Position numbers and translations under genes: made by a program
Shown: in pieces, positions 3,881-9,277 of the stretch
Layout of the letters: each line of letters opens with the position of its first letter
Numbering within the stretch: the first letter of the stretch is position 1
NCBI GenBank assembly: GCA_043776675.1
Contig: JAYVRB010000036.1
Coordinates: 220-64,219 of the forward strand
Direction: 5' to 3'
Source of the DNA: a bacterium
GTDB lineage: Bacteria; Patescibacteriota; Saccharimonadia; Saccharimonadales; UBA4665
DNA length: 64,000 nucleotides
The notes under the pieces: generated by a model
What the model saw: only the letters and a program-made list of their open reading frames with translations
What the model was told of the DNA's origin: nothing
Database searches by the model: none

Positions 3881-4249
3881 CTAGCTGGTAAGTTGCTTCT
3901 TGACGAGTTCGGCTACTTGCCTTGGAGTCATGTTAGCCTTGAGTATAACGTCACTTACTCCGTTGGCTTTGACACTAGCCGGGATTTCTTGCTCGCCCAT
4001 ATTGGTTAAAATGATCACTTTGATATCCTTACCCCAAGACGATTTGCGCATTGCATCTAGCATTTCATCGCCGTTCATTTCAGGCATCATTAAGTCAAGT
4101 AGGATGATGTCGGGCTTCATTTTCTCAGCAAGTTCAAGTCCGAGTTTGCCGTTTTCGGCAGTCTGCACGTCATAGTTCTCGGCTTCAAATTTGAAACGGT
4201 ACATCTGGCTGATAGCTTGGTCGTCTTCAATAATTGCAATTTTGATCAT
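3881..4249 (-). CDS. stand-alone response-regulator receiver (CheY-like, no output domain)
   Basis: 122 aa. Acidic pocket EDD, phospho-acceptor context ILLDLMMP, LTN and LKA signature positions. Stop lies 2 nt from the murD start. Confidence 0.85.
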   Translation of the reverse strand: MIKIAIIEDDQAISQMYRFKFEAENYDVQTAENGKLGLELAEKMKPDIILLDLMMPEMNGDEMLDAMRKSSWGKDIKVIILTNMGEQEIPASVKANGVSDVILKANMTPRQVAELVKKQLTS

Positions 4250-4295
4250 ACTCTAATCGTACGTCACTCACCCCTATAACACAATGCCCTTAAGG

Positions 4296-4667
4296 CTACT
4301 TGCTTTTCAGTACTTCTTGGACGATTTCGACGATTTGTGAAGGGGTATGATGAGCTTTGACGACGTAGCGATCAACGTTCAGGAAGCGTAGTTTCGACGG
4401 AGCCTCGTCTTTGCTGATGTTGGTCAGAACGATGACTCTCATACTACTACCCCAATCTGTTTGACGGAGCTTCTCAAGCATATCTTCTCCAGTCATCACG
4501 GGCATTCGTAAATCTAGCAGGATTAAGTTCGGCATGAATTCTTCGGCTATTTTGAGCCCAGAGGCTCCGTCGTATGCACACTCAATTTCATAGCCGCTTT
4601 GATCCAGCTTGAATTGATACATGCTAGCAATCGCAACTTCGTCTTCAATTATTAGTATTTTGGACAT
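4296..4667 (-). CDS. stand-alone response-regulator receiver (paralogue of 3881-4249)
   Basis: MSKILIIEDE..., LILLDLRMP, VLTN, VKA. Start moved to the ATG at 4667. Confidence 0.85.
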   Translation of the reverse strand: MSKILIIEDEVAIASMYQFKLDQSGYEIECAYDGASGLKIAEEFMPNLILLDLRMPVMTGEDMLEKLRQTDWGSSMRVIVLTNISKDEAPSKLRFLNVDRYVVKAHHTPSQIVEIVQEVLKSK

Positions 4668-4881
4668 TATAATCCAATAATACCAGATAGATAATAAGCG
4701 CATAAGTCACAACGATTGAGTTAATACGGTATAGACTTTTTCTTGGTTATCTGGTAAAGTACTACTTAGTCATCTTTTATAGATGATGCAATTTAGAAGA
4801 TTACGGCACTTAGTTTCTCACTAATCATTATGTATTAGTGGGTTGCTAAGTGTCGTTTATTTTTAAGACTTAGACATTATC

Positions 4882-6215: not shown

Positions 6216-7086
6216 CTCGCGATTTGAACGAAATCTAGGCTTTTTATCTGAGGCAGAACAGACTAGATTAGGTGAATCAGTAGTCGCTATTGCAGGTGCA
6301 GGAGGTGATGGCGGGATGCTTGCAATACAATTAGCGAGAATGGGTATTGGCGAAATACGTCTTGCAGATCCGGACCCATTTGAAATTGAGAATATCAACC
6401 GTCAAGCAGTTTGTACTGATAGAACTATTGGCCTTAATAAGGCCGATGCTGTTGGTGACTATGTGCAGTCTATAAACCCAAACGCTAAAGTAAGGGTTTT
6501 TGATAAAGGTATAACCAGAGGTAATGTCAATGAGTTTGTTGATGGTGCAGATTTGGTTATAGATGAGACAGAGTTTACGATGCATGAACTTGGTGTAATG
6601 CTAGGCAGAGAAGCACGCTCAAGAAAAATACCTAATATGACAGCATTAAATATGGGTTTTGGAGCGATTGTTACGACATACCGTCATGATGGTCATACTA
6701 TAGAGAGGACGTTAGGTCTAAGCGAACAGTCCACTATTGATGAAATAAAGGATCAAGAAATATCAATTAGTAGGTGGTTACCTTATTTGCCTAAGTACGG
6801 CGACATAGATGTACTTAATGTCGTGGCTAAGGGTGAGAAATCAGCACCATCAATAGCGCCTGGAGTTGCAATTGCAGCAGGTGCTGCCGCAACTCAAGCA
6901 TTCTTGAACCTAGTTGGAAATGAGAACAATCGACCAAGCCCAGTATATGCACCAAGAGCATTAGTTATTGATGCAATGACAATGCAAGCTAAAGTGATCG
7001 GCTACAATAGGCTATCTTACTACAGGCACGCCATACACATGCTCGGACGCAACGCATTGAAACTCAACCCCAAAGCCAGTTATTAG
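6208..7086 (+). CDS. ThiF/MoeB/E1-like adenylyltransferase (bare adenylation domain)
   Basis: IAGAGGDGG (GxGxxG), DPDPFEIENINRQ, GLNKADA, VIDETE. No CxxC zinc motifs or rhodanese domain. Ser replaces the usual Cys before PGV (SIAPGVAIAAG). Confidence 0.75.
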   Translation: MTSSRFERNLGFLSEAEQTRLGESVVAIAGAGGDGGMLAIQLARMGIGEIRLADPDPFEIENINRQAVCTDRTIGLNKADAVGDYVQSINPNAKVRVFDKGITRGNVNEFVDGADLVIDETEFTMHELGVMLGREARSRKIPNMTALNMGFGAIVTTYRHDGHTIERTLGLSEQSTIDEIKDQEISISRWLPYLPKYGDIDVLNVVAKGEKSAPSIAPGVAIAAGAAATQAFLNLVGNENNRPSPVYAPRALVIDAMTMQAKVIGYNRLSYYRHAIHMLGRNALKLNPKASY

Positions 7087-7123
7087 TATCAATTCTTAAA
7101 AGTTTTCTGTCATAATAGCCCTA

Positions 7124-9277
7124 ATGCTTGATGGCTATATATTAATTAGTACAATTTTGTCTATTATCTTCATGCTTTTGGGCTTGGCAGTGCTAATTCG
7201 TAACCCCAAGTCGTACAGCAACAGGACGTTTCTGCTATTTAGTTTTGCGATAGCATTATGGCTAGTCACAAACTATTTAAGTAGCACAGTTACAACGCCG
7301 TACAGCCTAGCACTCGTTTCAAACAAGCTAGTCTTCTTCTTTGGAGGAATTAGTATCATGGCGCTTCTGGCATTTGTATGGTCCTTAACTTCTTTACGAT
7401 ATAGCTGGATATGGAAATCGCTACTTCTAATCAACGTTATTCTTATCGGTTCAACATTGACCCCATGGGTTGTGGAAGAAATTAAAGCACAGGAAAATAC
7501 CTGGGTAATACATTTTGGGATATTGGCATCGGTTTATTTTGTAATGTTATTCACAGATTTTGTTGCAATTATTAGTGCTCTTATACAAGGAAGAAAAAGA
7601 GTCAAAGGAGTGCAAAAGCAACAAATTAATATTATCTTAGGAAGTCTTGCGATTACTCTGAGTGCTATATTAATTACCAACGCATTATTTCCATTCGGAT
7701 TCGGATACTATGGGCTTACTAATGCGGGATCATTTTTCACAGCAGCGCTAGTATCTGGCGTGGCATATAGTATCGTCAGATTGAAGTTGTTTGATATCCG
7801 CTTAGTTGTGGCGCGTTCACTGGCGTATGTATTATCAATATTTGTAATAGTAACACTGTTTGTATCAATAGTATTTGGAGTTTCAAGCATAGCTTTTAAT
7901 GTACAGATTCCAGCTAATCAAAAAATTTATATCGCCTCAATGAGTATCGTAATTGCGCTAGTCTTTCAGCCAATTAAAGCTCTATTCGATAAAGTCTCTA
8001 ACAAAGTATTTTTTAGAAATGACTATAATCCACAAGAGTTTTTGAACAAATTGAGCAAAATAACTGCCAGCACACTAAACCTACCATCAGTTATTAGTGA
8101 AAGTTCAGCTTTAATGGTAAAGGATTTTAAGGTTGAAGCTTGTTCGTTTGTCCTATTAAACCCTGACGGTACAGTTCATTCTAGAGAAAACAGCAGTTTG
8201 TCACAAGATTTAATCAGACAATTTATGCACGAGCTCCCAAAGAACGTTAGGAGCACTATACTATATGGCGAAGACACGACAGGCTCTAGGCTTAAGCAAG
8301 CGATGACAAGAATTAATGCCGAAGCAATCATTCCGCTCAATTCAAGTAACACACGCGTTGGATATCTATTACTAGGTATTAAAAGTACCGGGCAACCGTT
8401 CAATTCTCAGGATTTAAAGATCTTAAGTATCGGTGGTGACTCACTGGCGGTTTCTATTCAAAATGCATTGCGGTTTGAAGAGATACAAAACTTTGCCACT
8501 ACGTTGCAGACCAGGGTGGATGAAGCCACTAGGAAGCTGCGGTATGCCAATGACAAGCTAAAAGCTTTGGATGAGACCAAGGACGACTTCATCAGTATGG
8601 CATCACACCAGTTACGCACGCCGCTGACGAGTATAAAGGGCTACATTAGCATGGTGCAAGAAGGCGACGCCGGTAAGCTGAACGATACACAAAAGCAGAT
8701 GCTAGGCCAAGCTTTCACGAGTTCACAGCGGATGGTCTATCTAATCGCCGATCTGCTAAATGTGTCGAGACTCAAAACCGGTAAATTTATCATAGATCGT
8801 ACTCCAGTGAATCTTGCAGAGGTGATTGAACAAGAATTGGCTCAAGTTAGAGAAACTGCACTGTCACGCAAACTTGATCTTATATATGACAAACCCCAAA
8901 ACTTCCCAGACCTAATGCTGGATGAAACTAAAACTAGGCAGGTGATAATGAACTTCGTCGACAACGCCATCTTTTACACACCAGCTGGTGGACAGATTCT
9001 AGTAAGGCTAATTGATAAGTCGAGTTCGATTGAACTGAGGGTAGAAGATAATGGCATTGGTATTTCCAAGAGTGACCAACCACATCTGTTCACCAAGTTT
9101 TACCGAGCTAGCAATGCGCGCAAAGCACGTCCAGATGGTACGGGTCTAGGCCTATTTATGGCCAAAAAAGTTATCATTGCCGAAGAGGGTTCTTTGATAT
9201 TTGAAACAGTAGAAGGTAAGGGCAGTACGTTTGGATTCAGTTTCTCAAAGTCCAAAGCCGGAGTCCAGCAGAAGTAA
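7124..9277 (+). CDS. sensor histidine kinase with multi-pass (~8 TM) N-terminal sensor
   Basis: H-box SHQLRTPLTSI, N-box NFVDNAIFYTP, G1 EDNGIGIS, G2 GTGLGLFMAKK. About 300 aa of hydrophobic helices, followed by a GAF-like linker. Confidence 0.9.
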   Translation: MLDGYILISTILSIIFMLLGLAVLIRNPKSYSNRTFLLFSFAIALWLVTNYLSSTVTTPYSLALVSNKLVFFFGGISIMALLAFVWSLTSLRYSWIWKSLLLINVILIGSTLTPWVVEEIKAQENTWVIHFGILASVYFVMLFTDFVAIISALIQGRKRVKGVQKQQINIILGSLAITLSAILITNALFPFGFGYYGLTNAGSFFTAALVSGVAYSIVRLKLFDIRLVVARSLAYVLSIFVIVTLFVSIVFGVSSIAFNVQIPANQKIYIASMSIVIALVFQPIKALFDKVSNKVFFRNDYNPQEFLNKLSKITASTLNLPSVISESSALMVKDFKVEACSFVLLNPDGTVHSRENSSLSQDLIRQFMHELPKNVRSTILYGEDTTGSRLKQAMTRINAEAIIPLNSSNTRVGYLLLGIKSTGQPFNSQDLKILSIGGDSLAVSIQNALRFEEIQNFATTLQTRVDEATRKLRYANDKLKALDETKDDFISMASHQLRTPLTSIKGYISMVQEGDAGKLNDTQKQMLGQAFTSSQRMVYLIADLLNVSRLKTGKFIIDRTPVNLAEVIEQELAQVRETALSRKLDLIYDKPQNFPDLMLDETKTRQVIMNFVDNAIFYTPAGGQILVRLIDKSSSIELRVEDNGIGISKSDQPHLFTKFYRASNARKARPDGTGLGLFMAKKVIIAEEGSLIFETVEGKGSTFGFSFSKSKAGVQQK

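Follow-up and report, generated by a model that had tools for sequence, protein, structure and literature searches.

Here we present an analysis of a 64,000-nucleotide window (the whole stretch of DNA studied; contig JAYVRB010000036.1, assembly GCA_043776675.1) from a Saccharibacterium of the UBA4665 lineage, with emphasis on a putative operon that encodes a membrane protein with about four transmembrane (TM) segments, a GNAT-fold acyltransferase (GNAT), a ThiF-like adenylase (ThiF) and a seven-TM (7TM) sensor histidine kinase (HK). Our preferred interpretation, to which we assign a probability of roughly 60%, is that the GNAT and the ThiF-like protein are a membrane-associated N-acyl amino acid synthase (NAS) and cyclase that make either a saturated acyl-oxazolone or the corresponding N-acyl amino acid, and that this chemistry is functionally tied to the kinase. 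Comparison of related loci revealed that the GNAT, ThiF and HK genes form a unit of constant order and spacing, that the two enzymes are naturally fused in some relatives, and that in one syntenic locus the ThiF-like protein is fused to a nitroreductase-family flavin oxidase (FDO) of the kind that accompanies such enzymes in characterised oxazolone pathways. The enzymology itself is not new; what is particular here is that the system is FDO-less, Saccharibacterial, linked to a kinase and provided with a TM partner.

Background

The founding acyl-oxazolone pathway, OxzAB of Pseudoalteromonas rubra, consists of an N-acyltransferase and a ThiF protein (bioRxiv 10.1101/2020.06.11.147165). In Mycobacterium tuberculosis, C12:0-tyrazolone is made by the NAS TyzA, the ThiF homologue TyzB, which cyclises N-acyl-Tyr using ATP, and the nitroreductase-family FDO TyzC (PMC10404671), and tryptazolones are made by TrzA together with TrzS (Rv1355c), a ThiF::FDO fusion (PMC12856293). 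ATP-dependent cyclisation of N-acyl amino acids has likewise been described for OxzB and TrzS (bioRxiv 10.1101/2020.06.11.147165; PMC12856293). TrzS closes the ring before oxidising it, and a ring-closed but non-oxidised species builds up with an inactive FDO or under limiting O2; the oxazolones themselves undergo hydrolysis in acid and alcoholysis (PMC12856293). The same NAS/ThiF/FDO trio is found in stieleriacine-type, planctomycete and other N-acyl-dehydrotyrosine clusters (PMC12479983). The first-pass annotation of this DNA had assumed that these two enzyme types do not occur together in any characterised pathway, which was wrong, because OxzAB, TyzACB, TrzAS and the stieleriacine-type clusters all combine an NAS with a ThiF-like cyclase (bioRxiv 10.1101/2020.06.11.147165; PMC10404671; PMC12856293; PMC12479983).

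From the side of signalling, Bernard et al. reported 18 LuxI homologues next to sensor kinases in bacteria of the Candidate Phyla Radiation (CPR) and proposed them to be quorum-sensing systems, with ThiF unmentioned (PMC7567580). The adjacency of LuxI homologues and sensor kinases in the CPR is thus already known.

A conserved unit of acyltransferase, ThiF-like protein and kinase

Synteny was compared across 11 loci. The order GNAT-ThiF-HK was kept in all of them, with identities across the set of 29-57% for the GNAT, 43-68% for ThiF and 39-61% for the HK, which is a full-length orthologue in each. Spacing between the GNAT and ThiF genes ranged from -8 to +14 nt, and the gap between ThiF and the HK was 33-44 nt in 10 of the 11 loci and 97 nt in the remaining one. 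Since both the arrangement and its spacing are conserved throughout, they are not the product of chance. In the window, the 37-nt gap between ThiF and the HK holds neither a terminator nor a credible promoter; a near-consensus promoter appears only past the HK gene, at 9560-9588, so that the transcription unit most likely ends there.

One to three receivers without an output domain are kept at the equivalent position in related loci, and the gene 5' of the GNAT varies by locus. The invariant unit is therefore GNAT-ThiF-HK plus receivers, and the protein with four TM segments (hereafter the 4-TM protein) is a clade-specific accessory. Consequently, the coupled trio of 4-TM protein, GNAT and ThiF proposed in the first-pass annotation is conserved in its two enzymes, which travel invariantly with the kinase, but not in its 4-TM gene, which is replaceable or absent. 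A scan of GTDB genomes that required exact patterns yielded 4 loci. Also, the locus adjoins murD, murI and murL in relatives: at L004 (3369-5956) a MurL-type epimerase (PF26299/PF26298) comes after the murD-type ligase, at a position that belongs to a glutamate racemase (murI) in most of the other loci.

The ThiF-like protein and its relatives

The ThiF-like protein matched the Pfam family PF00899 with 117 bits, and its adenylation motifs (G30-x-G32-G33-D34-G35, D54, N64-R65-Q66, K78 and D119-E-T-E) are invariant among 31 family members. It holds a single Cys (C69) and has neither a CxxC motif nor a rhodanese domain. No open reading frame (ORF) of 40-130 aa with a Gly-Gly terminus was found in the whole 64-kb window. 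The earlier description of the protein as a bare adenylation domain without the conserved Cys, and with no ThiS/MoaD-like partner ending in GG nearby, was thus upheld. Its best NCBIfam models were three unnamed ones, PRK08223 (176.6 bits), PRK14851 (118.9 bits) and PRK14852 (91.5 bits), all with scores exceeding those on the ThiF, MoeB and TcdA models. The ThiF::FDO proteins have the same three best models and, in addition, match the Rv1355c-family and Acg-family FMN-oxidoreductase models. Assignment as a sulfur-carrier E1 of the ThiF/MoeB type was rejected (55-85 bits against cutoffs of 152-450, with no Zn site and no GG-ended partner), as was assignment as the tRNA ct6A dehydratase TcdA (NF011696, 58.2 bits against a cutoff of 304); the protein is therefore not the TcdA or MoeB orthologue that the first-pass annotation had named as a competing identity.

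An exhaustive ThiF search of 1.84 billion representatives returned 112 matches at E <= 1e-30. A ThiF search counted in 90%-identity clusters gave 357 proteins at E <= 1e-10. Fusions were counted among the 150 closest 50%-identity ThiF representatives, 21 of which have an N-terminal extension of ~250-268 aa and 16 a C-terminal extension. Ten of the 150 are confirmed GNAT::ThiF fusions whose GNAT part matches the GNAT family profile with E values down to 5e-46, and eight are ThiF::FDO fusions. Among the fusions with an oxidase, P0153 is the most instructive. Its ThiF part is 61% identical to the window ThiF and is followed by a C-terminal Acg-family FMN oxidoreductase (FDO) domain, and the protein scores 132 bits on the Rv1355c-family model. 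At the P0153 locus, which is syntenic with that of the window, three receivers follow folD, murI and murD, and the GNAT, ThiF::FDO and HK genes are divergent from them; on a rough neighbour-joining tree without support values, P0153 nests within the Saccharibacterial clade. Because a ThiF::FDO fusion shares this synteny, the window locus can be regarded as the orthologue of an OxzAB/TrzAS-type locus lacking the oxidase. From these relationships we infer that the window ThiF is probably an ATP-dependent adenylase/cyclase of the oxazolone-synthetase clade.

In a sequence search of the PDB, the best matches (E 4e-16) were 9egb, 9egc and 9egd, structures of a 265-aa protein named only by its 'THIF-type NAD/FAD binding fold', for which no publication was found; it may be a stand-alone small-molecule ThiF cyclase. 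The 318-aa relative P0188, equal in length to TyzB, comes from a short metagenomic contig and is not TyzB. Outside the Saccharibacteria, a related pair occurs on Rhodococcus plasmids: pN9T4-3 of Rhodococcus qingshengii (L104, 2846-5729) carries genes annotated 'GNAT family N-acyltransferase' and 'ThiF family adenylyltransferase', the latter 39% identical to the window ThiF. This pair is disrupted, being split by an IS256 transposase, and lacks the flavin oxidase, no nitroreductase being annotated nearby.

The acyltransferase

The GNAT scored 31.2 bits against the Pfam family Autoind_synth (PF00765), above the cutoff of 24. With FeeM (PF21926, 24.9 bits, cutoff 27) and Acetyltransf_5 (PF13444, 20.1 bits) it fell just under the respective cutoffs, and its relatives in L022 (31.7 bits) and P0155 (31.4 bits) cleared that of FeeM. 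An AlphaFold2 (AF2) model (pLDDT 87, pTM 0.86), compared with the PDB using Foldseek, matched LasI best (E 1.5e-9), followed by BjaI, TofI, RpaI, EsaI and MesI; FeeM (E 5e-6) ranked below these acyl-homoserine lactone (AHL) synthases and above generic GNATs. FeeM and BjaI are also the structural neighbours reported for TyzA (PMC10404671). Alignment of the GNAT family profile to LasI/BjaI showed R53, Y57, E75/D77/D80, R107 and E139/S141/R142 to match the hallmark positions, with the LuxI Trp position occupied by Phe or Tyr in the GNAT family. Thus the LuxI/FeeM-like character noted in the first-pass annotation was borne out, and the motifs it quoted from both enzymes are present. A PEP-CTERM/exosortase-associated acyltransferase (TIGR03694) was rejected at 45.5 bits against a cutoff of 111.95. 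AHL synthases and NAS enzymes are not separable by sequence alone; fold, conserved residues and homology together lead us to predict an NAS-type acyltransferase with a LuxI/FeeM fold.

The kinase and its family

The HK contains HisKA_7TM (41.4 bits), HisKA (63.9 bits) and HATPase_c (80.7 bits) domains, and eight hydrophobic 19-mers lie within its first 290 residues, giving an N-terminal multi-pass sensor of the 7TM type. Starting from the kinase side, a scan of metagenomes with a sensor-domain alignment yielded 55 loci with at least 2 kb of sequence upstream of the kinase gene. Window-type GNAT and ThiF genes were found upstream in 4 of these and a GNAT alone in 1; a more distant ThiF was present in 10, six of which have an FDO match directly 3' of ThiF; and in 14 the upstream gene encodes a ~300-aa soluble protein without a Pfam family. 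In total, an NAS-like GNAT and/or a ThiF lies directly upstream in 29 of the 55. The kinase family is thus broader than the cassette, and ThiF proteins of at least two lineages are found paired with it, one of these an independent TrzS-like ThiF::nitroreductase lineage that was confirmed by Pfam at L093. In L093 (246-6133) a 506-aa protein without a Pfam match, a ThiF::nitroreductase (718-722 aa) and a 7TM kinase of the HK family are encoded in this order, L062 and L063 resemble this arrangement, and no GNAT was recognised upstream in loci of this type.

The ~300-aa protein family occurs directly 5' of paralogous 7TM kinases in 14-18 metagenomic loci (including L028, L037, L044-L046, L050, L052, L053, L056, L058, L061 and L066). 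Comparison with the GNAT family by hhalign gave a probability of 77% (E 2e-5), and weak Acetyltransf_5 matches were present in 5 of 11 members, so these proteins may be divergent acyltransferases of NAS-like type, each with a kinase of its own. Additionally, L010 and L011 (3824-8181), a locus with a TM::GNAT fusion, have two tandem 7TM kinase paralogues after ThiF.

The 4-TM protein and the slot upstream of the acyltransferase

Hydrophobic segments of the 4-TM protein span residues 40-58, 73-91, 126-144 and 152-170, and both termini are predicted to be cytoplasmic because the loop 96-123 carries 8 Lys/Arg residues. No Pfam or NCBIfam family matched the protein, and an AF2 prediction from 9 sequences was unusable (pLDDT 38.5, pTM 0.20). 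Its invariant residues are W34, an intramembrane E80, S93-A-G-x3-G-N-P101, R107, L147-P148 and W152; the intramembrane Glu and the SAGx3GNP motif suggest that the protein is more than an anchor.

The slot immediately 5' of the GNAT gene is filled by a ~185-aa 4-TM protein in the window, L001 and L008, and in P0012 (450 aa) and P0013 (448 aa) the 4-TM protein is fused to the N-terminus of the GNAT. Another polytopic protein of ~290 aa occupies the slot in L016 and L018, an 84-aa ORF with a single TM segment in L004-L006 (the P0019 loci), and a soluble LPG_synthase_C-like protein in L007 (6885-7853; 28.4 bits against a cutoff of 27.5), and the slot is empty in L014, L015 and L022. LPG_synthase_C is the C-terminal transferase domain of MprF. 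A soluble LPG_synthase_C match (46.4 bits) was also seen directly 5' of a paralogous kinase in L090 (3040-3951).

Comparison with known systems

Among characterised systems, TrzAS (Rv1356c/Rv1355c; M. tuberculosis, M. smegmatis, Rhodococcus) also has the NAS directly 5' of the ThiF-type cyclase, and its cyclisation acts on the saturated N-acyl amino acid (PMC12856293). The ATP-site residue D217 of TrzS corresponds by motif, not by direct alignment, to the invariant D119 of the window ThiF, and the TrzS type of fusion, ThiF::FDO, recurs in the syntenic P0153. In contrast to TrzS, the window ThiF has no FDO domain and reaches only 73 bits on the Rv1355c-family model (cutoff 476), and its cassette is Saccharibacterial rather than from Actinomycetota, operonic with a 7TM kinase and equipped with a 4-TM partner. 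The operon logic of oxzA (N-acyltransferase) and oxzB (ThiF domain) is likewise shared, and ThiF::nitroreductase proteins such as P0275 and P0300 score highest on PRK08223/PRK14851, the best models of the window ThiF. However, OxzB is defined by a ThiF-nitroreductase di-domain, the second half of which is missing from the window protein, and no kinase linkage has been reported for oxzAB.

TyzACB (Rv2336/Rv2337c/Rv2338c), compared here by description only as regards TyzA and TyzB, provides a precedent for a stand-alone ThiF-like cyclase of ~300 aa (TyzB, 318 aa) that works with an NAS of LuxI/FeeM fold (PMC10404671). The structural neighbours FeeM and BjaI are common to TyzA and the window GNAT, and a membrane protein is encoded near tyz as well (MmpL9), but the tyz locus has a separate FDO, TyzC, for which the window has no counterpart. 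With the LuxI AHL synthases and their membrane-kinase receptors (LuxM/LuxN-type) the window locus shares the GNAT fold, the hallmark residues and an adjoining polytopic sensor kinase; it differs in having no LuxR and in its obligatory ThiF partner, which implies a product with a free carboxylate.

Genomic setting of the operon

The features of the locus are listed in Table 1. Gene coordinates, the GTG start, the approximate number of TM segments and both overlaps agreed between the first-pass annotation and the ORF list, and the length of the HK, its multi-pass sensor and its distance from ThiF were confirmed. So were the two divergent receivers co-oriented with murD, neither of which has an output domain, and hence the placement of the cassette within a two-component locus.

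Table 1. Features of the operon and its upstream flank in the window
Feature	Position	Strand	Remarks
folD	1454-2329		Receivers, Mur ligase and folD lie on the same side of the operon
Mur ligase (murD-type)	2580-3878		Both receivers co-oriented with it
Second stand-alone CheY-like receiver	3881-4249	-	PF00072, 77.2 bits
Stand-alone CheY-like receiver	4296-4667	-	PF00072, 68.3 bits; divergent from operon
Leader hairpin with U-run	4803-4866	+	25 nt 5' of the first start codon of the operon
4-TM membrane protein, 183 aa	4882-5433	+	GTG start; from ORF list
GNAT, NAS-type (predicted), 261 aa	5430-6215	+	ATGA overlap with 4-TM gene
ThiF-like adenylase/cyclase (predicted), 292 aa	6208-7086	+	8-nt overlap with GNAT gene
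Sensor HK, 717 aa	7124-9277	+	37 nt past ThiF stop

The operon is preceded by a hairpin with a predicted dG of -28.3 kcal/mol, followed by TTATTTTT, and the leader 4740-4885 folds with z = -5.3. Nothing significant was found in Rfam, the sub-threshold hits being chance matches to eukaryotic hairpin RNAs. A strong hairpin with a U-run lies 13-64 nt 5' of the first start codon in 9 of 13 loci, conserved in position and structure but not in sequence. Comparable hairpins are present in L001 (~7352-7430), L008, L010, L014 (~6830-6905), L017 and L019 (~5150-5200), where no co-oriented gene lies upstream. As these six loci have only divergent receivers upstream, the hairpin is not the terminator of a preceding gene; it may attenuate transcription or act as a leader. 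A candidate mini-ORF of 13 codons, read by eye in the window, seems to end within the hairpin.

Beyond the HK gene, 9645-11819 encodes a predicted 724-aa surface protein whose domains are DUF11/CLIPPER and a pair of PKDs; it also has a linker of Pro-Thr repeats and ends in a hydrophobic anchor. Surface proteins of this type follow the kinase in L001 and L002 and are encoded nearby in L021 and L022, and the window protein could be a regulated target. A ~28-nt element (GATCCTTC.CTAC..CTCTGGATGACAA) is present in direct copies at 9404-9432 and 9502-9530 and in an inverted copy at 9453-9480; within the window it is confined to 9404-9530, just 5' of the promoter at 9560-9588 for this PKD/DUF11 surface-protein gene. 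At the edge of the window, ORF 16-561 is coiled-coil-like, resembles by eye the C-terminal part of a recombinase and abuts a tRNA-Lys gene (520-596, minus strand); the region 16-596 could be the border of an integrated element.

Proposed pathway and its alternatives

In the pathway that we propose, which starts from an amino acid and a probably scavenged acyl thioester (acyl-CoA or acyl-ACP), the GNAT would condense the two into an N-acyl amino acid, as its fold, conserved residues and homology suggest. ThiF would then adenylate the free alpha-carboxylate, and attack by the amide oxygen would yield a 2-alkyl-5(4H)-oxazolone and AMP, a step to which the clade membership of ThiF, the GNAT::ThiF fusions and the orthologous ThiF::FDO locus all point. 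Since no nitroreductase-family flavin oxidase is present, the ring would stay undesaturated, leaving as product a saturated, hydrolysis-prone azlactone or the ring-opened N-acyl amino acid. The behaviour of TrzS leads to the same expectation: it cyclises before desaturating and accumulates the cyclised species when its FDO is disabled, so that an FDO-less system should stop at the saturated azlactone. As the azlactone is labile, either it or the N-acyl amino acid may be the effective product, or else an adduct. The 4-TM protein, judging from its translational coupling and the natural TM::GNAT fusions, would hold the synthase at the inner membrane face or hand over the lipid product.

Co-transcription of the HK, together with the TM::GNAT fusions, would place this chemistry at the membrane and makes a link between signal and receptor the most economical reading. 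Most likely, the lipid product would act in or on the membrane as a cue, or part of a cue, for the co-transcribed 7TM kinase; alternatively, the phosphorelay would control its synthesis. The argument here is one of synteny, tested from the enzyme side and from the kinase side. Of the roles suggested in the first-pass annotation, production of an N-acyl amide signal for the kinase comes close to this proposal but misses the cyclisation catalysed by ThiF. The more specific proposal, that a saturated acyl-oxazolone or N-acyl amino acid is a self-made membrane signal read by the 7TM kinase and relayed via the output-less receivers, is put forward tentatively, as a possibility we would not yet favour over its negation.

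Several observations weigh against an oxazolone or N-acyl amino acid product tied to the kinase. All characterised oxazolone and dehydro-N-acyl-tyrosine clusters have an FDO, either as a fusion or encoded alongside (PMC12856293; PMC12479983). Searches of the 64-kb window by tblastn with three FDO domains were empty (best E 0.06), most Saccharibacterial ThiF relatives (281-317 aa) have no FDO domain, and at the P0114 locus no FDO was found within 9 kb; with the FDO missing, ThiF may have some function other than the production of a free oxazolone. The window ThiF also scores below curated cutoffs (PRK08223, 176.6 against 266 bits; Rv1355c family, 73 against 476 bits), and its placement in the cyclase clade, made from family models, fusions, motifs and synteny, is tentative. 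Saturated azlactones, being labile, would be unusual as diffusible signals, and the source of the acyl donor is puzzling, since Saccharibacteria are expected to lack fatty-acid synthesis. Furthermore, both a GNAT and a ThiF are missing upstream in 26 of the 55 kinase loci, which means that the kinase family does not serve oxazolone-type chemistry exclusively. Finally, the GNAT-ThiF cassette is apparently absent from the cultivated S. epibionticum ML1, and no ThiF entry was found in the Tn-seq (transposon sequencing) tables for S. epibionticum.

The absence of an FDO speaks for an alternative in which no natural product is released and the acyl-adenylate or azlactone made by ThiF is a reactive intermediate. 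In one form of it, the N-acyl-aminoacyl group would be transferred to a nucleophile of the membrane or envelope (a lipid head group, a peptidoglycan amine or a protein), possibly with the 4-TM protein as the acceptor-side partner; in the other, the alpha-carbon would be epimerised to give N-acyl-D-amino acids. Azlactones do acylate and racemise easily, the products of the variable slot 5' of the GNAT are membrane proteins or, at L007, a transferase resembling LPG_synthase_C, and the locus is conserved beside murD, murI and murL. Moreover, the intermediate that is cyclised but not oxidised does arise as an enzyme product, and oxazolones are readily hydrolysed and alcoholysed (PMC12856293). We nevertheless consider this alternative unlikely, although it is the strongest competitor: no acceptor-specific transferase is common to the loci, L014, L015 and L022 consisting of GNAT, ThiF and HK only, the murD neighbourhood amounts to synteny, and no characterised ThiF-type cyclase has been shown to act in either way.

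Distinctly less probable is classical LuxI-type quorum sensing, with the GNAT as an AHL synthase using S-adenosylmethionine, the kinase as a LuxN-like receptor and ThiF as an unrelated or auxiliary protein. The PF00765 score above the gathering threshold, the AHL synthases as top structural matches and the conservation of all LuxI hallmark residues speak for it, as does the earlier proposal for CPR LuxI homologues beside sensor kinases (PMC7567580). An AHL, however, offers no free carboxylate to a ThiF-type enzyme, yet here every locus couples the translation of ThiF to that of the GNAT, and at least 10 representative relatives have the two fused; TyzA, a proven NAS, has been reported with the same structural neighbours (PMC10404671), and the orthologous P0153 locus has an oxazolone-type ThiF::FDO. 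Synthesis of a structural N-acyl amino acid lipid from scavenged chains by an OlsB/GlsB-like GNAT, with the kinase regulating membrane composition, had also been suggested in the first-pass annotation in the form of aminolipid synthesis, for which no specific support emerged. It would suit the weak Acetyltransf_5 (PF13444) match, the membrane partner protein and the LPG_synthase_C-like accessory in L007, but no OlsA-like O-acyltransferase is present, ThiF is left unexplained, and the structural and profile matches of the GNAT favour the LuxI/FeeM/NAS group, which makes it very improbable. Least probable by our estimate is E1-like activation of a peptide or protein C-terminus followed by transfer by the GNAT, whether of the ThiS/MoaD/ubiquitin-like type or of the kind found with ribosomally synthesised and post-translationally modified peptides (MccB/PaaA-like); this, too, was an earlier suggestion that gained no specific support. 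Membership of the ThiF family and PDB sequence matches to PaaA (E 8e-14) and MccB (E 3e-7) are consistent with it, but the protein is without catalytic Cys, Zn site and rhodanese domain, the 64 kb hold no small ORF ending in GG, no small ORF is conserved across loci (the 84-aa ORF being confined to L004-L006, of the P0019 type), and the closest family models are of the small-molecule cyclase type.

Implications

The biological role of bacterial acyl-oxazolones and of many N-acyl amino acids was left open in the work on OxzAB, Tyz/Trz and the stieleriacines alike (bioRxiv 10.1101/2020.06.11.147165; PMC10404671; PMC12856293; PMC12479983). That a whole clade keeps the biosynthetic pair transcribed together with a sensor kinase turns this into a testable hypothesis, namely that the product is the ligand of the kinase, and both the missing oxidase and the conserved kinase link bear on what oxazolones and N-acyl amino acids are for. 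If the proposal is true, oxazolone or N-acyl-amino-acid lipids would for the first time have a synthase together with its cognate receptor, and ultrasmall, episymbiotic bacteria of the CPR would be seen to signal through a chemical circuit of their own making; more broadly, the 7TM kinases of this family, about half of which carry such an enzyme directly upstream, would be general receptors for the products of NAS-like enzymes. As a natural FDO-less system, it can also show a ThiF cyclase acting alone, be it in azlactone release, acyl transfer or racemisation. Saccharibacteria have very small genomes and depend on a host, and that the cassette is kept in many of their lineages points to a role in the envelope or in interaction with the host.

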